A stretch of DNA of 64,000 nt, taken from Anaerolineales bacterium. Lineage in GTDB: Bacteria; Chloroflexota; Anaerolineae; Anaerolineales; UBA11579. The notes under the pieces were generated by a model. It searched no databases. It saw only the letters and a list, made by a program, of their open reading frames with translations, and had not been told where the DNA came from. Position 1 is the first letter of the stretch; every line of letters starts with the position of its first letter. Both the position numbers and the translations under genes were made by a program. Below, piece by piece: positions 48,163 through 64,000 of the stretch. The stretch covers positions 9,369 to 73,368 of the forward strand of contig DAOMSJ010000002.1 in the NCBI GenBank assembly GCA_035446285.1. The letters are read 5' to 3'.

Positions 48163-48182
48163 CGTTGACCGGAAGGCCGAAG

Positions 48183-48963: not shown

Positions 48964-48976
48964 TTTATGGTTAAGT

Positions 48977-49204: not shown

Positions 49205-49338
49205 ACTTAACACCACCTTTCCATTGTGGACTGCCGCCTGCTCACATAAACACGGCGTTCTTGCGAACGCCATACAAATACAGCCGGAAGCGCAGAGATT
49301 ATAACACGGCGCATACCGCCTGGGCGTATAATGCCTGA

Positions 49339-51063
49339 ATGACCAATAAAGAGCTGGCCGATACCTTTTTACTGATTGCCCATCTGCTCGAGATCAAGGG
49401 CGAGGTGGTCTACAAGACCCTCGCCTACCGCAAAGCCTCTGAAAACCTCACCAATTTAGGCCGGGATGTCAATGTGATCTGGCAGGAAGGCGGCCAGAAG
49501 GGACTTTTGGAGATTCCCGGGGTTGGCAAGGCCATCGCCGAGAAGATTGATGAGCTGCTCAGCACCGGCCAGATGAGCTTCCTCGAGAAACTCAAGAAGG
49601 AAGTGCCCGAAGAGCTAGCCAGCCTGCTGAGCATTCCTGACCTTGGCCCTAAGAAAATTGCCATGTTCTACAAAGAGCTGGGCATCAAGAGCATCGACGA
49701 GCTCAAGGCTGCGGCGCTAGAGGGCAAACTGCGTGACCTGCCCGGCATGGGTGCCAAGTCTGAGGCCAAGATCCTCACCGGCATCGAGGCGCTGGGTCGC
49801 CGCAGCGGCCGCCTGCCGCTGGGCACGGTGTGGCCCTTCGCCCAGGAGCTGCTCGAGAGCCTGCGCAAGGTCAAGGGCGTGAAGCGCGCCGAGGTGGCCG
49901 GCAGCCTGCGCCGCATGCGCGCCAGCATTGGCGATATTGATATTCTGGTCTCCTCTACCGACCCCGAGCAGGTCATCAAAGCTTTTACTGAGGCGCCCAA
50001 TGTAGCGCGCGTCACTGGCAGCGGCACGGTCAAATCCGGGGTGGAGTTCCATAACGGGATGCGTGGCCAAATTTGGGTGCATGCGCCAGCACGCTTCGGC
50101 ACGGCGCTGCAATACGCCACCGGCTCCAAGGAGCACAACGTGCGCCTGCGCGAGATGGCGCTCGACCTCGGCCTCTCGCTGTCTGACCAATCCTTCCTCA
50201 AAGAAGACGAGAGCGAGATCCTGTGCGCCACCGAGGAAGAGGTCTACCAGTTGCTGGGCATGGACTGGGTGCCGCCCGAAATTCGTGAAGACCGCGGCGA
50301 GATCCAACTGGCGCTGCAAAAGAAGCTGCCCAAGCTGATCGAGGTCAAGCAGATCAAAGCCGAGCTGCACAGCCACACCACTTGGAGCGACGGCCAGCTC
50401 AGCATTCGTGAGATGGCGGAAGCCGCCATCGCCCACGGCTACAAGGTGCTGGCCGTTACCGATCATTCGGCCGCCATCGGCATCCTCAACGGGCTCACAC
50501 CAGAGAAGGTGCTGGAGCAGCGCAAAGAGATCGAACAGGTGCGCAAGGCGCTGGGCGACCAGTTGACCCTGCTGCATGGCGTGGAAGTTGAAGTGCGCGC
50601 CGACGGCACGCTGGACCTGCCCGATGAGGTGCTCGCCTCGCTGGATATTGTGGTGGCCTCGATCCACCAGAGCATGCGCCAGCCACGCGCCCAGATCACC
50701 GAGCGTATGCTGGCCGCCATCCACCATCCGCACGTGGACATCATCGGCCACCCCACCAATCGCAAGCTGCCCGACCGCGAGGGTGCTGACCTGGATATGG
50801 ACGCGGTGCTCAAAGCCGCCGCCGAAACCGACACGGCGTTGGAGATCAACGCCAACCCGGCCCGCCTGGACCTGGACGATGTGCAAGCGCGCCGCGCCAT
50901 CGAGATGGGCATCAAGCTGTCCATCAACACGGACGCGCACCACTCAGACCATATGGATTTCCTGTTTTACGGTGTGGCCACGGCGCGCCGCGGCTGGGTG
51001 ACCCCCAAAGATGTCATCAACACCTGGACAGCCAAGCAGCTCAAAGATTGGCTGGCGAGTTAG
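49339..51063 (+). CDS. polX: DNA polymerase X family protein with C-terminal PHP domain
   Basis: 574 aa. HhH N-terminus NKELADTFLLIAHLLEIKGE. Pol beta-like core GSLRRMRASIGDIDILV. PHP block ELHSHTTWSDG...VTDHS. Confidence 0.85.
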   Translation: MTNKELADTFLLIAHLLEIKGEVVYKTLAYRKASENLTNLGRDVNVIWQEGGQKGLLEIPGVGKAIAEKIDELLSTGQMSFLEKLKKEVPEELASLLSIPDLGPKKIAMFYKELGIKSIDELKAAALEGKLRDLPGMGAKSEAKILTGIEALGRRSGRLPLGTVWPFAQELLESLRKVKGVKRAEVAGSLRRMRASIGDIDILVSSTDPEQVIKAFTEAPNVARVTGSGTVKSGVEFHNGMRGQIWVHAPARFGTALQYATGSKEHNVRLREMALDLGLSLSDQSFLKEDESEILCATEEEVYQLLGMDWVPPEIREDRGEIQLALQKKLPKLIEVKQIKAELHSHTTWSDGQLSIREMAEAAIAHGYKVLAVTDHSAAIGILNGLTPEKVLEQRKEIEQVRKALGDQLTLLHGVEVEVRADGTLDLPDEVLASLDIVVASIHQSMRQPRAQITERMLAAIHHPHVDIIGHPTNRKLPDREGADLDMDAVLKAAAETDTALEINANPARLDLDDVQARRAIEMGIKLSINTDAHHSDHMDFLFYGVATARRGWVTPKDVINTWTAKQLKDWLAS

Positions 51064-51075
51064 CTTGCCAGCAGG

Positions 51076-51516
51076 TTAAGGTCCTGCTAGCAGCCAGCGA
51101 TCCAGCTGGCGCAAGAACGGGCTGACCTCTGCAGGTGGCAGCCAGCGGCTGGCGTGCTGCGGGTGACCCAGTAGCAGCAGGCCAATGCCTGCATCCTCAA
51201 ACACTACGGAGCTGCGATACTTGCTGAGGGCGCGCCGATACGAGGGCATATCAGGTTGCGCCGCGCCATACATATCCAGCACTAGCGCCAGCAGGCCGCT
51301 GGGCTGCTGCTGGCGGGCGGCCAGCAGGCGGTGCATGCCGTCTTCGAAGGCGCGCAAGTGCGCAAAGGCATCCGGCTGGGCTGCGAGCAACACCACAGCG
51401 AGTGCGCCAGCATCACCTTGATATTCAACGTCCAACTCTGTCGCTGTTTGGCTGGGCTGGTAACCGTGAGCGGCCAGAGCAACCTGGGCAGAGGCATACA
51501 ACTCCTCGCGCGTCAT
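51076..51516 (-). CDS. hypothetical protein
   Basis: 146-aa ORF. Its start forms an ATGA overlap with the GNAT stop. No motif recognised. Confidence 0.4.
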   Translation of the reverse strand: MTREELYASAQVALAAHGYQPSQTATELDVEYQGDAGALAVVLLAAQPDAFAHLRAFEDGMHRLLAARQQQPSGLLALVLDMYGAAQPDMPSYRRALSKYRSSVVFEDAGIGLLLLGHPQHASRWLPPAEVSPFLRQLDRWLLAGP

Positions 51517-52067
51517 GGCGCCAGCCGCTTGGCCATCAAGATGTCTGGCTTGCCGGGGCCATTCGCATCCGGCACTACGCCGATGAGGCTGTAGCCGAGT
51601 TTGCGGTAGAAGACGAACGGGTGGCCGCCACGGTCCTCGATGGCAGCCAGCTTGCTGAGTGGGTCAGGAAACAGGTCTTGCCCGCCGAGCGAAGTGATGT
51701 AGCTCTCATCATCTGAGCCCAGCATCATCACCAGGCCGCCGCGGGCGCGCACCTGCGCCTCAATGTCGGCTACCAGCGCACGGCCAATGCCCTGGCGCTG
51801 GTGCGCCGGCGCAATCGCCAGCGGATGCAGCTCCCACACGTTGCCATCGTATTCTGGGATGGCGCCCACCCAACCCAGCACCTGCTCGCCACGCACAGCT
51901 ACGCGGCACAGAGTCTCCTCGTTGAAATCGGCCAGCTCAGCTTCGGCCTCTGCCAGGCTTGGCCAGGCGCTGGGCCAATCTTTGGCGAACGCATCCACCA
52001 GGATCTGGGCCACCTGCTGGCGAGCAGCGGCAGGCAAGGTTGAGAGATCAATGATGGCAAAGTCCAT
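51513..52067 (-). CDS. GNAT-family N-acetyltransferase
   Basis: 184 aa. Acetyl-CoA pocket HQRQGIGRALV. Confidence 0.7.
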   Translation of the reverse strand: MDFAIIDLSTLPAAARQQVAQILVDAFAKDWPSAWPSLAEAEAELADFNEETLCRVAVRGEQVLGWVGAIPEYDGNVWELHPLAIAPAHQRQGIGRALVADIEAQVRARGGLVMMLGSDDESYITSLGGQDLFPDPLSKLAAIEDRGGHPFVFYRKLGYSLIGVVPDANGPGKPDILMAKRLAP

Positions 52068-52096
52068 ACAGAGATTATTGCATAAAGCGCGCCGCT

Positions 52097-52126
52097 GGGA
52101 GCAGGCGTCTGCAGCCGCCTGCTCCC
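52097..52126. terminator. 11-bp GC hairpin at the boundary between the phage-like module and GNAT (no U-run)
   Basis: GGGAGCAGGCG tctgcagc CGCCTGCTCCC. Confidence 0.3.
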
Positions 52127-52136
52127 ATAGTGTGTT

Positions 52137-52388
52137 TCAGTCAGTGAGCAGCTTGTACGCCAAGGTAGCCGCGGCCAGCACCTGGCCGAAGGCGGCCAGC
52201 AACTCTTGCGGCTCCAGGCTGCCAGCGCCAATCTGCTGGCTGAGCAGGCTGGCGGCCACGCCCAATACGGCGGCCACGGCCGTGGTCAGCCACATAGCGG
52301 CGCGGCCTTGGGTGCCCCAACGCTGCTTGAGCCAGTTCACCAAGGGCACGCCCAGCGCACCCACCAACCAATACAAAGTCTGTTCCAT
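52137..52388 (-). CDS. small two-TM membrane protein (holin-like by size and context only)
   Basis: Track start trimmed to ATG 52388, preceded by a GGGGGGA purine run. MEQTLYWLVGALGVPLVNWL and AAMWLTTAVAAVLGVAASLL spans. Confidence 0.4.
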   Translation of the reverse strand: MEQTLYWLVGALGVPLVNWLKQRWGTQGRAAMWLTTAVAAVLGVAASLLSQQIGAGSLEPQELLAAFGQVLAAATLAYKLLTD

Positions 52389-52430
52389 TTCATTCCCCCC
52401 TTTTAGATAGAAGACCACATCAGGCACTCT

Positions 52431-52631
52431 TTATCCCCTCCTTATCACCTCCTCGAGGCGCGCCAGGATACGTTCGCTCAACTCGCCCATTTGCTGCTCG
52501 TACAGGTTTAGAATGCGGTCAAGCACACTGCGCGCCACAACATCCCCTCGATAAAAAGCCATCACCATAAAGGCCAGCAAACCAATCACCCCAAGGGCGT
52601 TGATGGCCTCGAACAAGATTGCCAAGTCCAT
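52431..52631 (-). CDS. small one-TM membrane protein with coiled-coil tail
   Basis: ATG 52631 preceded by GGAGGTG at 7 nt. MDLAILFEAINALGVIGLLAFMVMAFY, then a charged helix. Confidence 0.4.
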   Translation of the reverse strand: MDLAILFEAINALGVIGLLAFMVMAFYRGDVVARSVLDRILNLYEQQMGELSERILARLEEVIRRG

Positions 52632-52683
52632 GCGTAACACCTCCACAAAATCTGCACTACAATCCCGCTAAGGAGATTGAGAA

Positions 52684-52956
52684 ATGGCTACCAAGAAAAC
52701 CGCAAAGAAGACTGCAGCAAAGAAGACCGTAGCAAAGAAACCCGCCACCAAGGCGGCTTCCAAGAGCACCAAGCCCGCCAGCAGCAAACCCGCCAAGCAG
52801 GAGGCCAGCGGCCGCTCCTTGGGCATTGGCATGGGTGTTGGCATTGCCCTCGGCGTAGCCCTGGGTCTGGCGCTCGACAACCTGGCGCTGGGTATCGCGC
52901 TTGGCGTAGCGATCGGCGCTGGCTCCGGCGCAGCCATGTCTGGCAGCAACAAGTAA
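52684..52956 (+). CDS. small protein with Lys/Ala/Thr-rich N-tail plus glycine-zipper membrane segment
   Basis: 90 aa. AAGGAGA Shine-Dalgarno 7 nt upstream. MATKKTAKKTAAKKTVAKKPATKAASKSTKPASSKPAK, then GIGMGVGIALGVALGLALDNLALGIALGVAIGAGSG. Confidence 0.6.
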   Translation: MATKKTAKKTAAKKTVAKKPATKAASKSTKPASSKPAKQEASGRSLGIGMGVGIALGVALGLALDNLALGIALGVAIGAGSGAAMSGSNK

Positions 52957-52959
52957 GCC

Positions 52960-53127
52960 ATGGCAGACACTCCTTCATCTCGCATCAACCCAGTGTGGTT
53001 TGGCTTAGGCATTGGCGTCACCCTGGGCCTGTTGCGCGGCGACATTGTGCCGGGCGTGATGGCCGGGCTAATCGCCTGGGCGCTCGCTATGGCCTACCTG
53101 CGCTACAAGCAGGTGAAGGACAGCTAA
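52960..53127 (+). CDS. small membrane protein (55 aa)
   Basis: Own translation, below the track's 60-aa cutoff: MADTPSSRINPVWFGLGIGVTLGLLRGDIVPGVMAGLIAWALAMAYLRYKQVKDS. It starts 4 nt after the previous stop. Its stop overlaps the stop of the convergent 53124 gene. Confidence 0.4.
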   Translation: MADTPSSRINPVWFGLGIGVTLGLLRGDIVPGVMAGLIAWALAMAYLRYKQVKDS

Positions 53128-53453
53128 CTTTCCGCACTCGGCGAAACCACCTGCACCCGCAGCTTACGCCGCTCGTGGTTGCCATCCACCACCGCAGCAA
53201 TCATCACTACATAGCTCGCGCCCCCATCTACATCGAGGGCGCGCAGCTTTTTAAGCGTCAGCACGCTGCCGGTGATGATGTGCGCATCGCCCGCATCCAT
53301 CGCCTCACTGGTGATATCCGCGCCGTTGCGATACACCGTGGCTTGCGCGGTGCTCACGCTGGTGGCGCCCTGCCAATCCACGCTGTAGGCAATCTGCTCG
53401 CCGGCCACCATGCTGACCGGGCTATCGATCAGCCACACACTTTTGTCTGCCAT
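53124..53453 (-). CDS. phage-module hypothetical protein
   Basis: 109-aa ORF starting 2 nt after the upstream gene stop. No motif recognised. Confidence 0.45.
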   Translation of the reverse strand: MADKSVWLIDSPVSMVAGEQIAYSVDWQGATSVSTAQATVYRNGADITSEAMDAGDAHIITGSVLTLKKLRALDVDGGASYVVMIAAVVDGNHERRKLRVQVVSPSAES

Positions 53454-53454
53454 C

Positions 53455-54825
53455 TCACCCTCCTGTGATCCGTTCAGCGGCCAACAGCGTCTTGCGGCGG
53501 CGGGCGCGCAGCTTGATGCGCGCGTCCTGCAAACGCACGCGCGGGCTGGGCTGCACCAGCGTGCCGGTGGCGCTGGGCACGGCGAAGTAATCCACTACCA
53601 GCGCCGGGCGCATGGCCAGCGTGCCATGCAGCCCTGAGGCCAGGCGCACATACTCATTGCCATTAGCGGGCGGCAGGTTGCCCGCGGCATCACGGCTGCT
53701 GCGCAGGCTGTAGTACGCTGTGGCGCCGGGCGCCAGCCAACTGATATCCAGCGGAGGGCTGGGCAACAGCACGCCAGTGCTCAGGCCACTGGTGTTGCGC
53801 CACACAGCATCCGCCGCGCCAGCCAGACACCCGTCATAGGCCGCCTCGCGGTTGCCATTGCTCAATGGATCCTGCGGCGCCCAGTTTTGTTTGACAATCT
53901 GCAGATCGAAATCGGCCAGTGCTGAAGAATCCCCCATGCAGGCCAGATGCAAATTGGCAGCGTATATCTCAGCCAGCAGATTCAATGAAGCCAGCGAGAA
54001 CTTGAGCAATGAGCGAAAAGCGTAGTAGCGCGGAATGGCAGACTCGTACGCCTGGCCAATGTACATATCCGCCGTGCCGACATCATACGAAACCGAGGTG
54101 CTGCGCGCCACATAGTAGTTGGTGGCATAGCCGGCAATGTTGCCATCACTGACCGCGCCAAAGAAGACGGAAGGGTCGATCACCAGCGGGAAGCTGGCGC
54201 GCGCTACATCCTCCATCGCCAGCCCGGTGAACTCTGTACCCTCTACAGAGAAGTGGTGCACGGCAAAAAACCGCCCTTCGGCATCCACAGCGCTGCCGGG
54301 CGAGAACAGCAAGCCCTGAGCATTGCCGCGGTGCACCGTTTCGTACACCAGATAGCCGCTTCTCTCCACACCATCTGGCGCAGCGGAGAGTATCAAAGAC
54401 TCTTTCACCCCGTGCTCGGTCAGGGTGAGCTCATGGCAAAAGACGCCAGTCTCACGGCGCAGGCTGCTGCCCACGGCACGGCCATCGGGCAGCTGTGCCA
54501 GCGGGGTGTATTCGCCATCGGCCAGCACGCCGACACTGCGCGTGCGCTGCTGGTAGGCGCTGCCTTCACTGAAACTCAGCGTGCCGTCCGGCGCCAGGCG
54601 CACCGCGGCGCCGGGCGCGCCCCAGCGCGCCGCGGCATCCTGGCGCAAGCCGAGGTCATAGGCCTGCCAGCCCTGCGCGCTGCGGAAGTGCTGCGGCGCG
54701 GCGGTGATGACTGCGCGGCGCACACCGCCGCCCAGCTCAAAGTGAGTGGCGTGCGTGCTGCGTGCCACCTCGCGCCCGGCCAGCTCTTCATTCTGTTCCA
54801 AAAATCCATCGATCCACGTTGTCAT
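53455..54825 (-). CDS. phage-module structural protein (tail-fibre/receptor-binding-like, speculative)
   Basis: Track start trimmed to ATG 54825, preceded by GAGGGAGGGAT. 456 aa. Size and position after the large protein suggest a distal tail component. No diagnostic motif. Confidence 0.45.
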   Translation of the reverse strand: MTTWIDGFLEQNEELAGREVARSTHATHFELGGGVRRAVITAAPQHFRSAQGWQAYDLGLRQDAAARWGAPGAAVRLAPDGTLSFSEGSAYQQRTRSVGVLADGEYTPLAQLPDGRAVGSSLRRETGVFCHELTLTEHGVKESLILSAAPDGVERSGYLVYETVHRGNAQGLLFSPGSAVDAEGRFFAVHHFSVEGTEFTGLAMEDVARASFPLVIDPSVFFGAVSDGNIAGYATNYYVARSTSVSYDVGTADMYIGQAYESAIPRYYAFRSLLKFSLASLNLLAEIYAANLHLACMGDSSALADFDLQIVKQNWAPQDPLSNGNREAAYDGCLAGAADAVWRNTSGLSTGVLLPSPPLDISWLAPGATAYYSLRSSRDAAGNLPPANGNEYVRLASGLHGTLAMRPALVVDYFAVPSATGTLVQPSPRVRLQDARIKLRARRRKTLLAAERITGG

Positions 54826-54842
54826 ATCCCTCCCTCGAAAAA

Positions 54843-54947
54843 AGTGATGAGCAAATAGTGGAGAGTGAGCAGGAGATTGTCCTAGACTTACTACCGCCAT
54901 ACCCGTTCACTGTTCACTTCCTCACGGCTCACTTTTACTACTCCCCC
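54843..54947. repeat. heptanucleotide-phased tract with partly complementary arms (AGTGATG AGCAAAT AGTGGAG AGTGAGC AGGAGAT ... TTCACTG TTCACTT CCTCACG GCTCACT TTTACTA)
   Basis: Parsed by eye. AGTGAGC and GCTCACT are exact complements. It shares TCACTGTTCACTTC and CCTCAC(C)GGCTCACT with the 14681 tract. Confidence 0.75.
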
Positions 54948-55363
54948 AGATAGATCACGCCCTCTGGGCTCCATTCCAGGTTGAAGTCTTCGCCGCTCAC
55001 GGTGTGATCACCGCCAAAGTTCATGTAGGCCAGCAGCGGGCTTGTGGACGGGCTGCCGCTGTCTTTGTAGAGCACGGCAGCGCGGGCAGTAAACGCCCCC
55101 ACCGGCCACACCACGTTATCGGCAAGCAAGGCGGCACGGTCATTGGCGTTGTCTTGCGTTAGCGAGACCGTGGTGAGCGCCTTGCCGCCAGCGGTGTAGC
55201 CAGTGCCAGTCACCTCATGGCTGATGTCTGCATAGAACTGGTGCGCGTCTTTATCAGCCACATAGGCATCCGTCACCAGTGCGGCACGCAGTGTATCGGC
55301 CAGCGGCTGCACTTGCCCTTTGAGCAGCGCCAGCTTGCCAGCGTTGTAAATGAAGCTGTACAT
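54938..55363 (-). CDS. phage-module hypothetical protein (141 aa)
   Basis: ORF bracketed by two heptad tracts. Composition matches the neighbouring module genes. No motif I can name. Confidence 0.5.
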   Translation of the reverse strand: MYSFIYNAGKLALLKGQVQPLADTLRAALVTDAYVADKDAHQFYADISHEVTGTGYTAGGKALTTVSLTQDNANDRAALLADNVVWPVGAFTARAAVLYKDSGSPSTSPLLAYMNFGGDHTVSGEDFNLEWSPEGVIYLGE

Positions 55364-55373
55364 ACAAGACCTC

Positions 55374-55470
55374 CTAAGCTATTAGCCATTAGCGTTCAGC
55401 GAAACCCAACAGCTACTAACGAATCTCCAATTACCAATCTCTAATTACTATTCCCCATCCTTTACTCGGT
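55374..55470. repeat. heptanucleotide-phased tract (TAAGCTA TTAGCCA TTAGCGT TCAGCGA ... TCTCCAA TTACCAA TCTCTAA TTACTAT)
   Basis: Parsed by eye. It shares TTAGCCATTAGC, TCAGC, TAACGA and TCTCCA-TT blocks, in the same order, with 60249-60339. Confidence 0.75.
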
Positions 55471-58020
55471 TCACCCTTCCCGCACCTTGATCACGGCCAC
55501 GCCGCCTTCGCTTTCCAGCTCACGCTGCAGGCTCGGCGCCTCGACGATGACGTAGGTGTCATCCAGCGCAGCCCACACCGAGCGCATATGAATGCGCGCG
55601 GCGCTGCGGGCTGCGCCGCGCAGCCAGGCCAGGAAAGCCGCTGGCTTAGGGGCCAGGTTGCCGCTGCCATCCAACTGCAACTCGCCCAGGCGTATACGCA
55701 GCTCCCATTGGTATTTTTGCGGCGTGCGCGCAAAGCCTTCCAGCAGGGTTGATTCGACGGTGGCTGGGGTATCGGCACGTTGGCTGAGCAAACGCAGCCG
55801 TGGGCGAAAGGCGAAGATCTGGCCGGTGTTCAACGCCAGGGTGTCCACCGGCGAGGAGTAGAAACCACCTGCCTGGCGCCAGCGCGGGCCGCCGATCTCA
55901 CCATCCACTTGATAGTCCAACTCCACCTGGGCGCCCTCGCCCAGATTGCGGCTGACCAGGCTGAGCTGCGTGAGGAACTTGGGCAGCAGCGTCGCCTCCA
56001 TATCTATCGTGCTGCCAACGATTACGCCTTCATGCTGATAGCGCAGGCTGGCATCGCCCAGCGGATTGTCGCCGCTGGCAGGCAGGTCAAGATAGGCCAG
56101 CTCGCCGCCCATGGCGATCCAAAGCCGCGGTGCCGTGCCCGGGCAGGCCTGCCAATGCAGGCCGCTGATGCGTAGGCCGGGCTGCGGGGCGCGCAGCAAC
56201 TCATGCCAGGCATCGCCGTCGGAGACCAGCACGCTGGAGTGTCCCGGCCCGGCATCGATGGCGGCGGCCATGCGGCCCACACCCAGCGGCGCGAGGGCGG
56301 CCACGCGGCCGCCGCGGCCGGCGGGCAAGCCCTCGCCGCGGCCCGGGCCAACATCGGCCAGGCCGCTGGCGCCAGTGACCAGCACTCGGCTGCCCCAGCC
56401 GAGCCACAGCTTGTCCTCCCAGACTCGCGCGGCGATACCACTCATCCCCTGCGGAACAGCTTCCAGCCCCAGGTTGTGGCGCGAGACATGCTCGCTGCGC
56501 TCGAGCACCCATACGCTGTTGGCTTTGAGCGCCCACAGCTGGCCGTTGTAGTCCAGCAGCTTGTGCAGCGGCTGGCCATCCGCCCCCAGCTTGATGGCCG
56601 AGCCAAAAGCGAGCGCGGTGAGCCACGCCGTGGGCGCGGCGCGTGAGATCTCGGCGCTGGCGCTGAAGCCGCGCCACACCTGCGGGCCGAGCTCAGCGTG
56701 CTGGAAGACATGCAGCAGGTCTGCCGTGTTGCTGCCATCATCATCAAACTCATGCTTGGGCGGCGAGGCGGCCGGGTTGAAGCGCACGCGCAAGATCGGC
56801 ACGCTGTTGCCCTGCGCCAGCAGCGCCTGCCCGTTGAGTACGGCCACATCGCTGACGATGCCGTCAATGAGATCGCCAGAGCTTGGCGAAATATCACGCC
56901 AGTGCGGCGTAGCGCAAATGGCGTATTCAGAGGTGGCGTCTGGCGCGACATCCCAATCGGCCACGTTGAGCGTACTGACGCTGTTGGCGGTGATGTGGCG
57001 CGATTGCCCCGCGCCTTTGCCCGCCAAAATGCGTACCCACGCGCCGGCCCAGTGATCGACGGGCCAGTTCTTGTTGGTGTCCGTGAGCGCGGCAGCCGCG
57101 CCGCTGGTGGCCACACCGCGCTCACCGTTGAGGTAGAGATGCGATGGTGTGGCATCGGCGCGTTGGTCAGCGGCGTAGAGCACACCCTGCAGCTCAAAGA
57201 ACACGAAGTTACGCGCCTGCTCAGCATCCTGCACGCGGTAGTAGGCGCAGAACTCGGTAGCGCTCCACGTGCTGCCATCCACTGAGCTATGGCCGCCACT
57301 GGCGCGGCGTTGCACGCCAATCTCCCAGTGATTGCTGGCATTGTCTGCCGCTGCGCCGCGCAGCGAAAGGTGATAGCTGCCCGCGCTGAGCGGCGTGCTG
57401 TAGCCAGAGACATCAAAGCTGCGCAACTGGCTGACCACATCGCCCACATCCGCCTGCGTGATGGCATGCGTTGCTCCTGGCAGCACCGCGCCCGACTGCC
57501 CGGCCGCATCGGCGTGCAGTTGCAGGGTCAGCTCGCCCGGCGACCCAACCCGGCGCAGCCACACGCGCGCCTGCTTGGCGGCCAGCCCCTCAGCGCCCAG
57601 CGTAAAAGCAGCCGCCAGGCTGCGTTGCGCCCCGATGAGCGACTGCCAGCGCACATCGCCCGGCAGGCGCTGGGCGGCGTTGCGCAGCCCGCTGGCATAG
57701 CGCCACTGCGGCGTGGCGTGTACGCGGCCCGGCGTCAGCGTCCACGCCTCCTGGCTGTCATAGAAGCGGCGGGCGGCCTGCGTGCTGAAGCGCGCCGCGC
57801 CGCGGCCGCCGCTCCAGTCACGCTGCTCGATCTGCGCCAGGCCAGGCTCCCAGGCGCCAAAGCCGCTGACCCAATTCAGGCGCAAGCCGGAGGGCGTGAG
57901 CACACTTTCCTTGATGCCCGCCGCCCCACCCTCCAGACGTAAGCCCCAGGTGAGCACACCATCACTCAGGCTGAGCTCATGGCTTGCAGCACTGGCGCCA
58001 GCATACACGCGCACACTCAC
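55471..58020 (-). CDS. large phage-type structural protein (possibly nozzle/tail-tubular-B-like, speculative)
   Basis: Track start 58119 trimmed to GTG 58020 (GTGA overlap with the upstream stop). 849 aa. Repeated beta-strand-like blocks (LWALKANSVWVLE, KLWLGWGSRVLV, RLWIAMGGELAYL) suggest a propeller-like region. Confidence 0.5.
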   Translation of the reverse strand: MSVRVYAGASAASHELSLSDGVLTWGLRLEGGAAGIKESVLTPSGLRLNWVSGFGAWEPGLAQIEQRDWSGGRGAARFSTQAARRFYDSQEAWTLTPGRVHATPQWRYASGLRNAAQRLPGDVRWQSLIGAQRSLAAAFTLGAEGLAAKQARVWLRRVGSPGELTLQLHADAAGQSGAVLPGATHAITQADVGDVVSQLRSFDVSGYSTPLSAGSYHLSLRGAAADNASNHWEIGVQRRASGGHSSVDGSTWSATEFCAYYRVQDAEQARNFVFFELQGVLYAADQRADATPSHLYLNGERGVATSGAAAALTDTNKNWPVDHWAGAWVRILAGKGAGQSRHITANSVSTLNVADWDVAPDATSEYAICATPHWRDISPSSGDLIDGIVSDVAVLNGQALLAQGNSVPILRVRFNPAASPPKHEFDDDGSNTADLLHVFQHAELGPQVWRGFSASAEISRAAPTAWLTALAFGSAIKLGADGQPLHKLLDYNGQLWALKANSVWVLERSEHVSRHNLGLEAVPQGMSGIAARVWEDKLWLGWGSRVLVTGASGLADVGPGRGEGLPAGRGGRVAALAPLGVGRMAAAIDAGPGHSSVLVSDGDAWHELLRAPQPGLRISGLHWQACPGTAPRLWIAMGGELAYLDLPASGDNPLGDASLRYQHEGVIVGSTIDMEATLLPKFLTQLSLVSRNLGEGAQVELDYQVDGEIGGPRWRQAGGFYSSPVDTLALNTGQIFAFRPRLRLLSQRADTPATVESTLLEGFARTPQKYQWELRIRLGELQLDGSGNLAPKPAAFLAWLRGAARSAARIHMRSVWAALDDTYVIVEAPSLQRELESEGGVAVIKVREG

Positions 58021-58840
58021 GCCTGCCCCCGCAGATGCAGCAGGCGAGCGGCGCGTTGCGGCCTCCAGATGGGGAAGCGACGGCGAGCGGCCTGCAACTC
58101 CTCGGCGGCCTCTTGCCAAAGAAGGCCCAACTTGCTATCACCGCCACGGCGGGCACACTGCCAGCGCAAGGCGCGCTCGGCCACGGCCGCCACGGCCAAC
58201 TCGGGCGCAATGGCTTCGGCCAGCACATCATCGTGCGTCGCCAGGCGCGGGTGGGCCGCCAGGTACCACACGCGCAGCGGCCGCCCCGCAGGTAGCGGGT
58301 CGGCAAACAGCACCATGCCGGGCGAGCCAGGCGCAGCCGGGACAAAATCCCAATCGTGCAGGGTACGCCACGGGTCGCCTGCGCTGACCCCGGCACGGCA
58401 AGATAATCGATGCGCAGTGGGCGGCGGCGCGCCCAGGCCAGCGTATTGTTGCTGGAGGGCAGCACGTCTTCATCCACCTGGGGCACCGCACCCAGGCCGC
58501 GCAGGGCGCTGTTGGCCAGCTCGATCATCGTCGCCAGCGGGTATTGCGCCGAGGCCAGCGCGTAGGCCATGCCCGCCTCCATGGGCTCGCTGAAGCTGGC
58601 CGCCAGCGTCAGCGTGCCGCTGCTGGCGGCGAAGCCCGCCACGCGGGCGAATTCACCCGCCGGCGGCGCCCCGCCCGCCGCCAGGAAGACGGTGCCGCCC
58701 TTCCAGTCATCCTCGCGCTGGCCAGCCAGTTCGGCCGCATCCACCAGCGTGCCAGCGCTGCCGCCGCTGGCCTGGCCGCGGCGCAACTGGCCCAATTCCA
58801 TATAGGCGTCTTGAAGCAACTCACTCAACGTGTACGACAT
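58017..58840 (-). pseudogene. phage-module protein whose frame shifts by -1 at the CCGGGGTC run (about 58388-58395); disrupted or mis-assembled
   Basis: Frame 1 (from ATG 58840) is protein-like up to ..RIDYLAVPG, then turns W/C/R-rich. The -1 frame continues VSAGDPWRTLHDWDFVPAAPGSPGMVLFADPLPAGRPLRVWYLAAHPRL... to the TGA at 58017. Confidence 0.5.
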
Positions 58841-58970
58841 ACACCCCCCTTGATAATGCTGCGCCGTTAAACAACGCAGCCTGCGGCATTCATAGCACGC
58901 AGGCTGCAGGTTGTGCGGATTTTGGGGCGGATGTCAAGCAAACACATAAACAAAGTAGCCACAAGCTAAT

Positions 58971-59001
58971 GAAAAGGCCCAGGCTCCCCCTCGCCTGGGC
59001 C
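58971..59001 (-). terminator. intrinsic terminator downstream of the capsid gene
   Basis: Minus strand reads GGCCCAGGC gagggggA GCCTGGGCC followed by TTTT. A second hairpin, GCAGCCTGCG/CGCAGGCTGC, lies at 58876-58907. Confidence 0.55.
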
Positions 59002-59074
59002 AGTCGCAAGAAGCATGCGCAATGCTGTTTATCAGACGCACGCGGGTGTGCCAAATCCCTGTGCCGCTAAACGC

Positions 59075-59110
59075 ATCACTGCTCGCTTCTCACCGCTCAC
59101 TCTTCACTAT
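59075..59110. repeat. short heptanucleotide-phased tract ATCACTG CTCGCTT CTCACCG CTCACTC TTCACTA
   Basis: Parsed by eye. It abuts and overlaps the capsid gene stop and has the same CTCAC/TTCAC unit type as 14681 and 54843. Confidence 0.6.
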
Positions 59111-60237
59111 GTCGTGATGCCCGTGATCTTGCCATGCGCTTTGTTGTTGGCTACCAGCAGGCTGAGCTCGCCCACCACCTCGCCCTTCAAGCTGTCGCCC
59201 GAGCGCGCCAGCTCCTTGGCCTCGAAACCGCGCAGCGTGTAGAAGCCCACCTTGCCGCTCTCCAGAACGTAGGCGGTGTGCACCGGGCACCAGCGGTCCA
59301 TCACCAGCTCCAGCTCGCCATACTGCGTCACCACGCGCTCCACCGCATCCAGGCCCAGCTTGTTCTCGCCCTGGCCCACGCGCACAAAGGTGCTGTTGTC
59401 CAGCAGGCTGCGCAAGTCGTTGGCTACGCGCGGGTTCATCACCAGCAGATCCGGGTTGCCGCCATCCATCACAATCTCTTCCATCAGCCCGTCCACGTCG
59501 GCTTTGGCGATAGCACCGCCGGCATCCACGCTGTTGTTGGTGATGAAGCTGCCCAGCCCGCCCATTGAGCGCGGCGTGCTGGCCGAACCAGCCGCACGTA
59601 CGCCGTGGAAGGCGGCGCCTTCCACCAGGCGCAGCAAGTGCGGCACGGCCTTGTTGGCCTGGTACTGGAACTCATCCTCGATGCCGTGCTGGCTGATCGC
59701 CTGCTGCGTACCGCTCACCTGCACCGCCTTCTGAAAGATGCTGGTGTAGTTGAACGGCACGTTGAGCGCCATCAGCGGGCCGTAATCGGCATCATCGCCT
59801 TCGAGGCGAGCCATTGCCGTGATCTGGATCGGCGCGGTAGCGGCATGAGTGGCATTCGTGCCGCCGTAGGCGCGGCTGTACACGGTGACGGTGTTGGTGC
59901 CCAGGTCCACACTCTTGACCACCATGTACTCCTCATCGATCAGGAGGACATGCCCATCTTGAAACACCGAGGCATCCGCCACCACAAAGCTGGTGTCAGA
60001 TGCGTCAATCGTCTCGCCGTTGTTGGCGGCGGTCACCAGCGGGTCAAGCTCATCTTCAAGCAGCTCAACCTTGTGGCCGTTCATGCGAATTTTGAACTTC
60101 TCGCGGGCGCTATCCAAACCCAAGCGCGCCAACAGCGGCGTGTCACGTGGGTCGATCATCTGTACCACATCACTGATCACGCGTGCCTGCGCCGCGCTGT
60201 CTGCATAGGTTGTTTTCATGCCATCGTAAATTGCCAT
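59107..60237 (-). CDS. phage major capsid protein (HK97 fold, DUF5309/SU10-type pattern)
   Basis: 376 aa. ISDVVQMIDPRDTPLLARLG, VELLEDELD, NYTSIFQKAVQVSGTQQA, YQANKAVPHLLRLVE and RSMGGLGSFITNN blocks follow the pattern of this capsid family. An inserted domain is present (FVVADASVFQDGHVLLIDEEYMVVKSV...VYSRAYGGT). AGGGAGGAT Shine-Dalgarno. Confidence 0.75.
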   Translation of the reverse strand: MAIYDGMKTTYADSAAQARVISDVVQMIDPRDTPLLARLGLDSAREKFKIRMNGHKVELLEDELDPLVTAANNGETIDASDTSFVVADASVFQDGHVLLIDEEYMVVKSVDLGTNTVTVYSRAYGGTNATHAATAPIQITAMARLEGDDADYGPLMALNVPFNYTSIFQKAVQVSGTQQAISQHGIEDEFQYQANKAVPHLLRLVEGAAFHGVRAAGSASTPRSMGGLGSFITNNSVDAGGAIAKADVDGLMEEIVMDGGNPDLLVMNPRVANDLRSLLDNSTFVRVGQGENKLGLDAVERVVTQYGELELVMDRWCPVHTAYVLESGKVGFYTLRGFEAKELARSGDSLKGEVVGELSLLVANNKAHGKITGITT

Positions 60238-60248
60238 TCAATCCTCCC

Positions 60249-60339
60249 TAGTTAGCTGTAAGCCATAGCTGATAGCGGTTAGCCATTAGCAGTCAGCTAC
60301 GCCGAGTAACGAGCAAATCTCCATTCTCTACTCATTTAG
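60249..60339. repeat. heptanucleotide-phased tract (CCATAGC TGATAGC GGTTAGC CATTAGC AGTCAGC ... AGTAACG AGCAAAT CTCCATT CTCTACT)
   Basis: Parsed by eye. It forms the leader of the capsid gene and is homologous to 55374-55470. Confidence 0.75.
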
Positions 60340-60860
60340 TAAACTTCCAGCCCCCTTTTCCTAAACTCCCGCTTGAGCTCCAGCAGCGCGCCCAGGTCCC
60401 CTGGGCGCAGCGCTGCCAGCCGCCGCGCATACTCGCGGCGCGCATCGGGCGCAGCCGCACCTGCCCCGCCCGGCGGGATGGCGCGGCTGGCACGCGGCGC
60501 CGGCCGGCCCACCTGTGCCATGCGCGCCAGGGCCAGGCTGGCCAGGTCTGCCAGGGCGCTGAGCTCGGCTTGCGGCTCACCGCCCTGGGCCTGCTGCAAC
60601 AACTGCTGCACACCGGGCGCGCGCTCCAGGCCCGCGTGCTGCAAGGCCTCCAGCACTTGCAGCTGGGCTGGTGCGTCAGCTTCGCTGGCGCTGCCGCGCT
60701 CAGCCGCCAACTGCTCCAGGCGCGTTTCCAGCACCTCCACCAGTTCCTCTCGCAATTGGGCTTTCACAATATCGGCAATGCGTTGCTGCTTCTTACTCGT
60801 CCCCACACCTGCTGACGCCGGCTCTTGTGCTGGCAAGGAGACTTCTGCCTCTGTGTCCAT
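60336..60860 (-). CDS. scaffolding-like protein (acidic, Ala/Leu/Gln-rich, helical)
   Basis: Track start trimmed to ATG 60860, preceded by AAAGGGGGAAAC. 174 aa. Coiled-coil-type composition. It lies immediately upstream of the capsid gene. Confidence 0.45.
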   Translation of the reverse strand: MDTEAEVSLPAQEPASAGVGTSKKQQRIADIVKAQLREELVEVLETRLEQLAAERGSASEADAPAQLQVLEALQHAGLERAPGVQQLLQQAQGGEPQAELSALADLASLALARMAQVGRPAPRASRAIPPGGAGAAAPDARREYARRLAALRPGDLGALLELKREFRKRGLEVY

Positions 60861-61159
60861 GTTTCCCCCTTTCGCCGCTGGGTATAGCACAGCGCCCCAT
60901 TGCCAAGCTATATTGCCACGCACTATCAAGCCGTTGGACAACAACCTAACAATTATGCAAGGTCATTGGAGGGAGTTTGAATTTCAACTATCATCCCTGA
61001 TAGGGTGAGAAGATGGGAAACCAAGCGCTAGCGCATCCAAGAAAGCCAAACGCCCGATTTGCCCATCGGGCAGAACGAGTTTAAGGCCAAGTCTGCCGCC
61101 GCTAACGCAAATCACGAGAGAGCAAGCAATACGCTAGCCGCACGCACCGCCCGACACAT

Positions 61160-61930
61160 ATGACCTCACCCACAATCGCCATTCTGGTGCACCTGTTCAC
61201 CAGTGTACTGTTCCTCTTTATTGGTTTGCGCCTCAGAGCGAAGCGATACGATAGCGCCAAAGATCAACGCGCCTGGGATGCGTTCCTCGTCTGGTGGTAT
61301 GGCATGGCGCTCAATTCCGCGCTGATGGCGTTCTCCATGCTGCTCAGCCTGTGGGGCGTCAGCAGCCTGTATCTGTTTGTCATCCTCAGCGTGCTGGGCA
61401 CCTTTGCCGTAGGCGGCGCCATGTGGGGCTTATTGAGTTATCTGCTGTATGTCTACACCGGCAATTGGCGCCCATCTCGCTGGGTGGCCGGGTTCTATAT
61501 CGTTTTCTGCCTGTACCTGGTCTACACCGTGGTGGCCTTCGTCCCCGTGCGTGCCAGCCTCTCCACATGGCAAGTCTTCATAGAATACGCGCACACACCT
61601 GGCCCCTTGTATCCGGTTGGCCTGTTATTGCTCTTCGCCCTGCCGCCCATTCTGGCCAGTGCTGCTTTCTTCCGCCTGTATTTCAGTCTCACCGAGCGCA
61701 GCGCGCGCTATCGTTCCCTGGTGATCACGACGGGCATCTTCCTATTCTTTGGTTTCCCTTACATCATGCCCATCGTGCTGTACCTATTTAACATTCTCAC
61801 CACCCAGTTGCCCTGGTGGCAGCTCACCCAGCGCATGGTCGGCATTGTGGCCCTTGCGCTGATCTACTCCGCCTATTATCCGCCCGCGCTGGTACGCAAA
61901 CATCTGCGTGTTAGCGCAGTGACGGGTTAA
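61160..61930 (+). CDS. hypothetical polytopic membrane protein
   Basis: 256 aa, about 7 hydrophobic spans. Its C-terminal ~110 aa are paralogous to the next ORF. Confidence 0.55.
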   Translation: MTSPTIAILVHLFTSVLFLFIGLRLRAKRYDSAKDQRAWDAFLVWWYGMALNSALMAFSMLLSLWGVSSLYLFVILSVLGTFAVGGAMWGLLSYLLYVYTGNWRPSRWVAGFYIVFCLYLVYTVVAFVPVRASLSTWQVFIEYAHTPGPLYPVGLLLLFALPPILASAAFFRLYFSLTERSARYRSLVITTGIFLFFGFPYIMPIVLYLFNILTTQLPWWQLTQRMVGIVALALIYSAYYPPALVRKHLRVSAVTG

Positions 61931-62048
61931 CCAACACTCCCCCTCATCCGACATCAACACCGCACCGCTGGGCGGCTTCTGTAGCTTCGGCCTGCCCCCG
62001 CTAAATTCACTCTATGTCTTCCGCCCGATTCGAGGTGTCGCTCGGCAA

Positions 62049-62411
62049 GTGAGAAGCCATCATTCAGTATCAAAACGCACCAAAGGTTTCTTTGGCCTCG
62101 TTTACGGCGTGCCGCTGTTCCTCCTGCTCAGCGTTCCACCCATCCTGGCTTCCTTCGGCATGTTGTACTTCAAAGTAACCGAGCGCAACGCCAAGTTTCG
62201 TGCGCTGCTGGTGCCGCTGAGTTTCTTCTGCCTGTTCGGCATGGCCTCTTTCATCCCCGCTGCGTATCTGGCTGGTATCAACGTGAATGCCACTGCGTGG
62301 TGGCCCACCACCCTCCACGTCATCGGTGTCGCCGCATTGATGCTCATCTACATCGCTTACTTTCCGCCCAAATGCATACAACGCTGGCTCAAGGTCAAAG
62401 CCATCATCTAA
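62049..62411 (+). CDS. hypothetical membrane protein, partial paralogue of the preceding gene
   Basis: 120 aa. VPPILASFGMLYFKVTERNAKFRALLV here versus LPPILASAAFFRLYFSLTERSARYRSLVI in the previous gene. LMLIYIAYFPP here versus LALIYSAYYPP. Confidence 0.5.
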   Translation: MRSHHSVSKRTKGFFGLVYGVPLFLLLSVPPILASFGMLYFKVTERNAKFRALLVPLSFFCLFGMASFIPAAYLAGINVNATAWWPTTLHVIGVAALMLIYIAYFPPKCIQRWLKVKAII

Positions 62412-62412
62412 C

Positions 62413-62444
62413 AAAAAAGCCGCCCATGTAGGGCGGCTTTTTTA
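62413..62444. terminator. bidirectional intrinsic terminator
   Basis: A-run, then AGCCGCCC atgta GGGCGGCT, then T-run, between convergent genes. Confidence 0.8.
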
Positions 62445-62457
62445 TTCTGCATCGTGT

Positions 62458-63711
62458 CTATTTTGCGGCCGGGGTTGGCGTGCCGCTGGCCGGTTCCCCG
62501 GTGCCAATATAGGTTTCTTCGGTCGTGCCCAGTTGCGCCGCCGGCAGCAAGCGCGAGTCTGACGCATCATACGTCACCACAACCTTGTCGCCTTTCTTGA
62601 ATTCATCGTCATCGTCCATATTGCGCACCAGCACGGTGAGTTCCGTGCCGCCCTTGAGCGAGACCTCTACGCGTGTGTCCGTACCCAGGAACACGGAGTC
62701 GAGCACGCGGGCGTTCATCACCGCGTTGACGCGCGGCGGCTGCGGTCTGGCCGGATTTGTTGGCGCAGGCGGCGGCATTTCAGCGCCCGGCGCCAAGGCC
62801 GGCGCCAGCTCGCGTGCCACAGCCAGCTTCTCCGGGCGGATCACCATGGTGACCTTGTCACCAGGCATCAGCGGGAAGTTGGCCCGCGCCGCAGTAACAT
62901 CCTCACGCCCCACTTTCAGCACAGTACGATCCTCATGCAGCGATACCACCTTGCCTTCCAGGAAGTTGGTGTCGCCAATAAAATCAGCCACAAAGTGATT
63001 GGCCGGGAAGTTGTAGATCTGCTCAGGCGTCCCCACCTGCTGCACGCGGCCTTCGCTCATCACGGCGATACGGTCGCTCATGGTGAGCGCTTCTTCCTGG
63101 TCATGCGTTACATAAATAAAGGTGATGCCCACGCGCTTCTGCAAATCCTTGAGCTCGTGCTGCATCGTCTCACGCAGCTTGAGGTCCAGCGCACCCAGCG
63201 GCTCATCCAACAGCAGCACCGCCGGGCGGTTCACCAGCGCGCGCGCCAACGCCACACGTTGCTGCTGCCCGCCGGAAAGCTGATTGGGCTTGCGCTCCCC
63301 CAGCTGCCCCAGCTTCACTAGCTCCAGCGCCTCGCGCACGCGCACTTCGCGCTCACCCTTGGGTACACGCTTGACCGCCAAGCCAAAGCCCACGTTCTGC
63401 GCCACCGTGAGATGGGGGAACAGCGCATAGCTTTGGAACACGGTATTGACCGGGCGTTTGTACGGCGGCACATCATTGGAGAGCTGGCCGTTGAGGAAAA
63501 TATCACCACTGGTGGGGAACTCAAAGCCGGCAATCATACGCAAAGTAGTGGTCTTGCCGCAACCACTGGGGCCAAGCATGGTGAAGAATTCACCTTGCTT
63601 GATCTCCAAATCCACGCCCTTAACGGCATGCATCAGCCCTTCTCCGCGCCCCGCGCCGGAGAAGACTTTGCTTACGTTTTTGAGTTCTACTGCCAATGGT
63701 TTCGCGTTCAT
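62458..63711 (-). CDS. ABC importer ATP-binding protein (PotA-like, with C-terminal regulatory domain)
   Basis: 417 aa. Walker A GPSGCGKTT, signature LSGGQQQRVALARAL, Walker B LLLDEPLGALD, H-loop YVTHDQ. Pro/Ala-rich insertion and tail. Confidence 0.8.
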   Translation of the reverse strand: MNAKPLAVELKNVSKVFSGAGRGEGLMHAVKGVDLEIKQGEFFTMLGPSGCGKTTTLRMIAGFEFPTSGDIFLNGQLSNDVPPYKRPVNTVFQSYALFPHLTVAQNVGFGLAVKRVPKGEREVRVREALELVKLGQLGERKPNQLSGGQQQRVALARALVNRPAVLLLDEPLGALDLKLRETMQHELKDLQKRVGITFIYVTHDQEEALTMSDRIAVMSEGRVQQVGTPEQIYNFPANHFVADFIGDTNFLEGKVVSLHEDRTVLKVGREDVTAARANFPLMPGDKVTMVIRPEKLAVARELAPALAPGAEMPPPAPTNPARPQPPRVNAVMNARVLDSVFLGTDTRVEVSLKGGTELTVLVRNMDDDDEFKKGDKVVVTYDASDSRLLPAAQLGTTEETYIGTGEPASGTPTPAAK

Positions 63712-63759
63712 TCTTATTCCTTCAGAAACATGGGCTCACAGGCCCGATTCTGTATCTCA

Positions 63760-63910
63760 CTCAATCCTTGCGGCGCACTACTCCCGGGACGGCTTGCCCG
63801 TCCTCAATGCTACGCGGCGCATATCAATCCCTAGACGGCTTTCCCGTCCTCAATGCTACGCGGCGCACACTAATCTCTGGACGGCTTGCCCGTCCCGATG
63901 CGCCGCAACC
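63760..63910. repeat. three tandem 43-46-bp units plus a partial fourth, each holding the hairpin GGACGG-n5-CCGTCC
   Basis: Units at 63760-63802, 63803-63848 and 63849-63894 (CTCAATGCTACGCGGCGCA..GACGGCTTKCCCGTC). The third unit and the partial fourth cover the stop and last ~12 codons of the upstream permease gene. Confidence 0.8.
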
Positions 63911-64000
63911 ATTCACTGAACAGCAAAATCACCACAGACACCATGATAACCACCGCGGCCGTAGTTACCGCCAGCGGCAGGCGGCTGGGGAAGCGTAACT
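63870..64000 (-). CDS. ABC importer permease, C-terminal fragment (5' part outside the window)
   Basis: Own translation: ..LRFPSRLPLAVTTAAVVIMVSVVILLFSEWLRRIGTGKPSRD*, with TAG at 63870-63872. Identity comes from context (upstream of the PotA-like gene) and the final TM. Confidence 0.45.
   Translation of the reverse strand, partial: LRFPSRLPLAVTTAAVVIMVSVVILLFSEWLRRIGTGKPSRD

Follow-up and report, generated by a model that had tools for sequence, protein, structure and literature searches.

Dispersed podovirus-like virion genes, probably domesticated, in a family of Anaerolineales

What is a phage capsid gene, with a run of tail-like genes behind it, doing among the ordinary genes of a Chloroflexota chromosome, with neither a portal nor a terminase nor an integrase gene beside it? 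The question is raised by a module within a 64,000-nucleotide stretch of Anaerolineales DNA (the window, G000:C2:9369-73368, where C2 is contig DAOMSJ010000002.1 of a source genome of 2.27 Mb, 17 contigs and 95.8% completeness). The answer that we favour, and consider reasonably probable, is that the module is the capsid-tail half of a podovirus virion set of the SU10 lineage, which has been domesticated, inherited vertically and maintained by selection. Portal and terminase genes that would complete the set lie farther along the same contig, beyond intervening host genes, and in the better genomes of the host family capsid, portal and terminase are either all retained or all missing. The genes on which this argument turns are listed here (aa, amino acids; ORF, open reading frame); positions are those of the window unless contig C2 is named.

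60336-60860, minus strand: scaffold-like gene; 174 aa when read from the ATG at 60860, with the frame open as far as a TTG at 60944
59107-60237, minus strand: major capsid protein of the SU10/DUF5309 type, 376 aa
58017-58840, minus strand: predicted adaptor gene of the SU10 adaptor type, interrupted near 58394 by a 1-nt deletion; ORF listed at 57977-58840
55471-58020, minus strand: predicted tail nozzle protein of the T7 gp12/SU10 gp17 type, 849 aa from the GTG at 58020; ORF 55471-58119
54938-55363, minus strand: tail accessory protein, 141 aa; phrog_644, E 4.2e-35
53455-54900, minus strand: variable protein of the putative fibre slot, 481 aa, or 456 aa from an inner ATG
G000:C2:80815-82530, minus strand: predicted portal, 571 aa from the likely start in a 597-aa ORF (80815-82608); 10.5 kb beyond the scaffold gene
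G000:C2:92495-93961, plus strand: large terminase, 488 aa, intact; phrog_38, E 3.1e-55; 22 kb beyond the scaffold gene
48977-49273, minus strand: rpsU (ribosomal protein S21), PF01165, E 3.9e-12; one match in the source genome and in most of the family

An earlier account of this stretch, which we call the sequence-only reading, had described the order of the minus-strand genes, and the ORF list bears this out from 60944 down to 52137: scaffold-like gene, capsid, a hairpin, adaptor, nozzle, the 141-aa, 456/481-aa and 109-aa proteins, and small membrane proteins. Its assignment of the capsid to the DUF5309/SU10 type held under profile search, the protein matching PF17236 (SU10_MCP) with E 4.9e-62 and 210.5 bits against a cut-off of 24.1, over profile positions 2-292 of 292, and phrog_1328 with E 1.8e-53; the gene is single-copy in the source genome. 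Directly upstream of it lies the scaffold-like gene, whose Ala/Gln/Glu-rich product is well conserved in relatives only over its C-terminal ~50 residues, and for which position and composition suggest a scaffold function.

The same reading had also held that nothing upstream of the scaffold gene could be a portal or terminase. This is true of the window, in which Pfam and PHROG scans found no portal, terminase or integrase, but not of the contig beyond it. Two related loci, L015 and L020, have a 599-628-aa gene directly upstream of the scaffold gene, preceded in L015 by a terminase gene. A search of the source genome with these proteins, of the kind that the sequence-only reading had itself proposed, located both portal and terminase on contig C2, the main virion genes together spanning 32.5 kb. 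The portal has no Pfam or PHROG match, no Pfam domain was found among 120 of its 215 homologues, and its profile (A2) gave as its best PDB match an unrelated chain at E 0.017. Its AlphaFold2 model (predicted local distance difference test, pLDDT, 77.4) is closest in a Foldseek search of the PDB to the SU10 portal 7z44 (E 1.6e-10); the best 50 matches are all phage or satellite portals or portal-tail complexes, and a structure search of the ESM Atlas gave template modelling (TM) scores of 0.64-0.70 to the SPP1, P22 and SU10 portal clusters. On these models the 571-aa protein is very probably a portal with an SU10/P22-type fold. Between the parts of the set lie an ABC transporter operon and genes for a multicopper oxidase, a GNAT protein, a rhomboid protease, beta-helix, SH3-domain and helix-turn-helix (HTH) proteins, BipA/TypA and a metallo-beta-lactamase-fold protein. 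A bipA/typA query finds one match only in the source genome, and it is the gene sited between terminase and portal.

Because PDB sequence-profile searches gave nothing significant, the identification of portal, nozzle and adaptor depends on predicted folds or indirect profile links; Pfam and PHROGs likewise have no match for the scaffold, adaptor, nozzle, 456/481-aa or 109-aa proteins. For the 849-aa protein, whose structure prediction the sequence-only reading had recommended and whose profile (A3) finds no match in the PDB, the AlphaFold2 model (pLDDT 80.7) is closest by Foldseek to SU10 virion and tail chains, and then to the nozzle proteins of T7, Kp9, E1004 and HRP29. In VIA-align, whole nozzle chains are matched along 420-431 residues with Z scores of 15.7-16.5. 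Since plain beta-propellers score as high over only ~280 residues, the propeller core alone is not diagnostic of a nozzle. We take the modelled protein to be a podovirus nozzle, with platform, seven-bladed propeller and nozzle domains.

The gene between capsid and nozzle, read earlier as a protein of ~275 aa, is indeed a single open frame of 270-290 aa in five relatives (L005, L006, L007, L012 and L015), but in this assembly it is split. Relative to L005, one C is missing from a run of C near 58394, leaving the residues to ~150 in one frame and the conserved C-terminal part in another; L005, whose capsid is 99% identical to that of the window, has 277 codons and 274 aa from the ATG. The split is seen in this assembly only and may reflect either an error of assembly or a lesion of very recent date. 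The intact L005 protein has no direct Pfam match and the family profile (A4) nothing significant in the PDB (best E 0.57). The same profile matches a protein of a viral contig (L106:12899-13690; 97.7% probability, E 2.4e-12, 237 columns) which in turn matches PF24175 (SU10_adaptor; E 1.5e-7, 32.5 bits against a cut-off of 27), and by this indirect route the split gene is predicted to be an SU10-type adaptor. Together with the portal and nozzle folds, this link supports the podovirus-like character that the sequence-only reading had proposed. Of the genes that follow, the 141-aa protein matches by its profile (A5) chain Ra of PDB entry 9d93, 'Tail wing arm, gp31', with E 7.6e-7. The 456/481-aa protein falls to 60-69% identity in close species whose capsids are 94-95% identical, and to 25% in L015, while the same slot holds Laminin_G_3 proteins in L010, L012 and L024; its position and variability suggest a receptor-binding or fibre protein. 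Pfam and PHROGs recognised no tail needle, long or short fibres or ejection proteins.

The distribution of these genes can be followed in 47 genomes of the family, belonging to 12 genera; a high-quality subset comprises 22 genomes (completeness of 90% or more, contamination of 5% or less), and the family tallies include G326, a genome flagged as unpublished, which lies outside this subset and on which no conclusion depends. The capsid is found in 31 of the 47 genomes, the terminase in 34, the portal in 33 and the nozzle in 27 (none with internal stops), each of the four in the same nine genera, and the capsid gives one match per genome in most genomes. In the high-quality subset, capsid, terminase and portal are all present in 17 genomes, all missing in five and partly present in none; the nozzle is present in 16. 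We regard this all-or-none retention of genes that have become separated as direct evidence of their joint function. In a sample of 301 genomes of the class, with the source genome counted in, there was a single other capsid match, a weak one of 31% identity. With the capsid as query, 20 related loci were collected, at 67-99% capsid identity, 19 of them from Chloroflexota, mostly from metagenome-assembled genomes of Anaerolineales. The remaining one, L021, is labelled Gemmatimonadota; it is a contig of just 3.4 kb and, being so short, is more likely to have been mis-binned than transferred.

The capsid has diverged in step with its hosts. Its identity to the window's copy is 93-99% where BipA is 90-100% identical, 73-79% where BipA is 76-81%, and, in other genera, 68-80% where BipA is 72-77%. 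The capsid tree recovers genera g1 and g186 as clades, and although both trees are single-gene and weak at their deep nodes, they have eight of 23 bipartitions in common, compared with a mean of 0.2 and a maximum of three in 1000 label shuffles. The virion genes thus appear to belong to the cellular genome and to have been transmitted vertically.

They also appear to be under purifying selection, as the estimates of conservation that the sequence-only reading had called for indicate. The ratio of nonsynonymous to synonymous substitution rates (dN/dS, NG86 method) was calculated for the source genome against up to nine genomes of its genus, all with the split arrangement; dS was mostly 0.4-1.0, so the values are rough. 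The capsid gave 0.03-0.06 within the closest species group, the 141-aa tail protein 0.03-0.11, the nozzle 0.11-0.23, the N-terminal part of the adaptor 0.14-0.27, the fibre-slot protein 0.10-0.32 and the scaffold-like gene 0.13-0.36, while the portal gave 0.14-0.17 and the terminase 0.20-0.22, rising to 0.31-0.35 and 0.31-0.33, respectively, to a more distant subgroup. The capsid value equals that of bipA (0.05-0.07); the ABC ATPase gave 0.04-0.07, GNAT 0.18-0.25 and neighbouring host genes overall 0.02-0.33, and no gene of the element (all 0.03-0.4) approaches 1.

How a phage gene set came to be dispersed can be read from its arrangement in different genera. The genes of G305 (locus L015) run terminase, portal, rpsU, scaffold, capsid, adaptor, nozzle. 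The portal still adjoins the capsid module in G312, G318 and G327, but there the terminase is set apart by bipA and other genes, and the nozzle module is 21 kb off or on another contig. In the closest group to the source genome, a block of ABC-transporter and oxidase genes also comes between portal and scaffold; G344 has terminase and portal 168 kb from its capsid, and in several genomes the parts are on different contigs. Within the source genome's own genus bipA stands between terminase and portal wherever both are on one contig, while in other genera it is on other contigs or far off, up to megabases. Since the bipA split is common to the genus, it must predate the genus radiation, and its occurrence in the single-contig genomes G309 and G316 argues against an assembly artefact. 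The best explanation is that host rearrangements broke the set into two to four loci, progressively along the host tree.

One host gene has kept company with the set throughout much of this history. In L015, rpsU (8795-9025) lies between portal and scaffold, in L009, L012, L016 and L018 it is directly upstream of the scaffold gene, and in genomes of the source genus in which both are placed it is 3-15 kb past the nozzle gene, even where the nozzle module has left the capsid; in most genomes of the family it is within a few kb of the capsid or nozzle module. Two explanations offer themselves: the ancestral phage integrated next to rpsU, or it carried in an S21 gene that displaced the host's own.

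Could the element, nevertheless, be an ordinary inducible prophage whose remaining genes have been overlooked? The proximity of the main virion genes on one contig and a Cro/C1-type HTH (HTH_3) gene between terminase and portal might suggest so, and the sequence-only reading had named adjoining portal, terminase and integrase genes as the finding that would speak for it. Yet what separates the parts is host sequence, including the only bipA/typA match in the genome and an ABC transporter operon, and the same split is common to different species, with distances of 168 kb or a contig boundary between the parts elsewhere. Of four tyrosine recombinase (PF00589) matches in the genome none is on contig C2, as none had been seen in the window, and no replication or recombinase families were recognised among the ORFs of window 37-64 kb and G000:C2:73-110 kb, a Pfam scan that would miss families not in Pfam. 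We give this explanation next to no credence and regard it as excluded. An ancient relic without present function, its genes slow to decay and lost piecemeal, deserves somewhat more attention, and several facts are in its favour: single genes are frameshifted (the adaptor here, the portal in G310 and G329, the terminase in G305 and G327), G340 retains only fragments of portal and terminase, G345 has a broken second copy of both, the whole set is missing in five of the 22 high-quality genomes, the source genome has no recognisable lysozyme, and a giant gene of the viral relatives is gone. Against it, piecemeal neutral loss would not be expected to leave 17 genomes with all three genes, five with none and none with some; frames are open across nine of 12 genera (the portal frames of G313, G317 and G346 over 578-590 aa, reported stops falling in the N-terminal extension of the query); the dN/dS of every gene, at dS of 0.4-1.0, is in the range of neighbouring host genes; and fragmentation is older than the radiation of the genus, the genes having stayed intact since. 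Neutral decay, which we judge unlikely, is hard to square with these facts taken together: the set is retained all-or-none, frames are open from genus to genus, and dN/dS stays well below 1 once fragmentation has occurred. Thus, of the two origins offered by the sequence-only reading, a decayed prophage tail end finds no support as neutral decay, and a domesticated module with partners elsewhere gains it from the portal and terminase, their joint conservation and purifying selection.

If the set was domesticated, what might it be for? Packaging and transfer of host DNA, in the manner of a gene transfer agent (GTA), is suggested by the retained terminase and portal and by the organisational likeness to known GTAs, and we entertain, as a tentative proposal which may well prove wrong, that this is an independently evolved Chloroflexota GTA, the first known from a short-tailed (SU10-lineage) phage, scattered and tied to rpsU. 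A domesticated particle with some other purpose, such as a PBSX-type killer, interference with superinfection or capsids lent to a mobile element, would explain retention under selection equally, and a fibre-slot protein that evolves fast and is swapped between lineages would suit the targeting of changing neighbours; viral relatives of the ancestral phage, moreover, still exist. The evidence does not separate this from gene transfer. However, terminase and portal are kept all-or-none with the capsid, so that DNA packaging seems to matter, and the 100 kb examined showed neither a partner mobile element nor a toxin; we think a non-transfer purpose rather unlikely, and the functionless relic slightly more so.

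Several observations weigh against the domesticated, selection-maintained set that we prefer. As regards the particle, packaged DNA and expression, the system is known from its genes alone. Not finding the set in five of 22 high-quality genomes and three of 12 genera, a pattern that needs seven changes on the BipA tree, means that it is dispensable, and in the frameshifted copies assembly indel errors are indistinguishable from real lesions. Precision of NG86 is limited by dS near 1, and the capsid is slow even in viral relatives (59-61% identical where the portal is 27%), so its low dN/dS is partly intrinsic. No small terminase or regulator was identified, and no GH25 lysozyme was found in the source genome (95.8% complete), which bears on the route of lysis.

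Setting these points against the evidence for domestication, we propose the following course of events. A virion gene set would have become fixed in the chromosome of an ancestor of most of one Anaerolineales family, and thereafter been inherited vertically, broken into two to four loci by host rearrangement and kept intact by selection. A few cells might express the set under host control. Scaffold and capsid would assemble on the portal, and the terminase would fill the heads with DNA, which probably could not include the whole set in genomes that have its parts 168 kb from one another or on different contigs. A short tail would be completed by adaptor, nozzle and fibre proteins, and release would fall to the membrane proteins, joined in most other genera by a GH25 lysozyme. 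The particles might then carry host DNA to kin, as GTAs do, or act as defective killer particles. If gene transfer is the outcome, host-made, podovirus-like particles would be the means by which filamentous Anaerolineales of sludge and sediments exchange chromosomal DNA. The order is abundant in activated sludge and sediments and rarely cultured, and a DNA-carrying particle would bear on gene exchange among its members.

The remaining features of the module and its borders are these.

60952-60981, minus strand: promoter-like site upstream of the scaffold gene, TTCAAA-18-CATAAT, 9/12 in a consensus scan
58976-59001, minus strand: terminator-like hairpin between capsid and adaptor, a 9-pair stem (eight G-C) with a T-run; pattern match only
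53124-53453, minus strand: conserved 109-aa module protein, in 14 of 20 related loci at 34-96% identity; dN/dS 0.15-0.40
52960-53127, plus strand: 55-aa glycine-zipper membrane protein, convergent with the module; kept in five of five close genomes
52684-52956, plus strand: 90-aa Lys-rich protein with a membrane tail, convergent; C-terminal part kept in five of five close genomes
52431-52646, minus strand: 71-aa single-pass membrane protein, holin-like by position, kept in L005-L009; dN/dS 0.08-0.15 where measurable
52137-52427, minus strand: holin-like membrane protein of ~83-96 aa, the last module gene, in 11 of 20 related loci at 51-96% identity; dN/dS 0.23-0.28
51513-52067: GNAT, host gene flanking the end of the module
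61160-61930: 256-aa membrane protein, host gene on the scaffold side, followed by an ABC ATPase

The hairpin behind the capsid gene and both flanking host genes are where the sequence-only reading had put them. Its four small membrane proteins fared less evenly: two stand on the minus strand, but the other two are better conserved as plus-strand genes, each with a glycine-zipper membrane segment, the pair (52684-53127) also containing a 15-nt tandem repeat that encodes a Lys-rich 'KKTA' stretch. A 125-aa minus-strand ORF here (52668-53045) is probably spurious, with matches in three of five close genomes against five of five for the plus-strand ORFs that it overlaps. The module ends, in most other genera, with genes for a GH25 lysozyme and for small membrane proteins, and in L011, L012 and L017-L019 the last membrane protein comes after the lysozyme. 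A host-like composition, also claimed, roughly holds for codon style (GC3, the G+C content of third codon positions, is 0.69-0.86 in the module and 0.718 +/- 0.078 in 764 long ORFs of the genome) but not for the total G+C of the adaptor, nozzle and scaffold genes, which at 0.68-0.70 exceeds the genome's 0.59; and the host-wide heptad tracts said to be interspersed came down, in Tandem Repeats Finder, to just two weak 7-nt rows in 48000-64000. The promoter-like site is a pattern match only, with two such sites found and 1.4 expected.

The gap between capsid and adaptor is an insertion slot: it holds a methyltransferase gene in L009 (12498-13831), L024 (9586-10122) and the viral L107 (12145-12684), and in L008 a 2-kb insert (~11130-13150) of genes without assigned function. 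In the window it contains, at 58932 on the minus strand (G000:C2:68300), one of three copies in the 2.27-Mb genome of the 11-mer TTTGCTTGACA, the others being at G000:C2:82587 (minus strand) and G000:C1:45467. Two copies stand just upstream of the adaptor and portal genes, each behind a terminator-like hairpin. We set the 11-mer aside as a shared promoter motif: of 26 related loci scanned, only L005 (before the adaptor gene) and L037 (before the ORF that precedes the terminase) have its 9-mer core in a comparable place.

Between portal and bipA (G000:C2:83903-87858) lie genes for an 867-aa beta-helix protein, a 256-aa SH3-domain protein and the HTH_3 protein. All three are matched in G309 and G312, the HTH gene also in G311, and they are candidate phage remnants (tailspike, lysin, repressor). 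Neither the 254-aa gene after the terminase nor a 141-aa gene whose homologue precedes the terminase in G344 has a Pfam or PHROG match, and a 154-aa ORF beside the rhomboid gene is probably not a gene, having dN/dS of 1.0-1.9 and stops in relatives. Beyond the GNAT gene are DNA polymerase X and rpsU, and farther into the window MgtE, phosphoenolpyruvate carboxykinase and ferrochelatase. A 46-nt tandem repeat (2.3 copies, 88% matches) is found at 63788-63895, just past the ABC ATPase gene. The stretch 40500-42300 is low in G+C (0.41 against 0.59) and holds a 311-aa ORF (40600-41535) without a Pfam match, adjoined by a tRNA-Arg(TCG) gene at 42146-42219; it could represent a small foreign insertion that has nothing to do with the module.

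Where, then, does the element stand among known systems? The capsid finds its best match in 50,697 phage records, at 31.8% identity, in Clostridium phage CB452P1, the closest named phage, which has annotated sheath- and baseplate-type genes (XkdK, Mu gp47) and which we set aside as too distant a guide. Two viral contigs from IMG/VR are far closer, with capsids 59-61% identical. In one of them (L107) the genes are contiguous, as terminase, portal (27% identical), a 351-aa and an 1867-aa protein, scaffold, capsid, methyltransferase and adaptor. The giant gene before the scaffold (L107:3652-9255, 1867 aa; L106:18-9128, 3036 aa, with a ddrB-ParB domain) is absent from all bacterial copies examined. 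The history of the set can thus be read stepwise, from contiguity in viruses, through genera in which terminase, portal, rpsU, scaffold and capsid are together, to others in which it occupies two to four loci. With SU10 (Kuravirus) and podoviruses such as T7, P22 and Bruynoghevirus the set has in common the SU10_MCP capsid, a portal model that best matches SU10, a PF24175-linked adaptor and a nozzle with a beta-propeller core, and the order of portal, capsid, adaptor and nozzle given for SU10 (gp6, gp9, gp11, gp17) in the relevant passages of PMC9509320 is paralleled by the bacterial set. It differs from them in its low identity, in its scattering among host genes in place of a phage genome and in that no replication or transcription genes were recognised.

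An encapsulin-type nanocompartment is ruled out by the co-occurrence of portal, terminase, adaptor and nozzle with the capsid. Domesticated defective prophages, such as PBSX of Bacillus subtilis, are generally contiguous gene clusters. Like PBSX, the element would be a chromosomal set of non-propagating, phage-derived particle genes kept in related species; unlike PBSX, it is split by housekeeping genes and derived from a podovirus. In open-access papers and bioRxiv we found no earlier report of such an element in Anaerolineae or Chloroflexi. As covered in passages of PMC9662315, the genetic basis of GTAs has been established for only three independently exapted groups, and GTAs are vertically transmitted, the 'genome' of RcGTA, and likely that of BhGTA, being dispersed across loci. 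From these the present element differs in its source (a podovirus of the SU10 lineage, which has an adaptor and a nozzle but neither tail tube nor tape measure), in its Chloroflexota host, in its narrower spread, through one family with five of its 22 high-quality genomes lacking it, and in being known here only as genes. It would thus come from another phylum and another phage morphotype than the known GTAs, and every further origin helps to show which traits of phage domestication hold generally. It resembles them in that, within the scope of the Pfam scans, it appears to have no functions for autonomous replication or integration. A particle might hold at best part of the gene set, whose members span 32.5 kb here, 168 kb in G344 and separate contigs elsewhere. 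Like RcGTA (Rhodobacterales), BaGTA (Bartonella) and BhGTA/VSH-1 (Brachyspira), it consists of chromosomal, caudovirus-derived head, portal, terminase, tail and lysis genes, with vertical descent, purifying selection, dispersed loci and neither integrase nor recognisable replication genes nearby.

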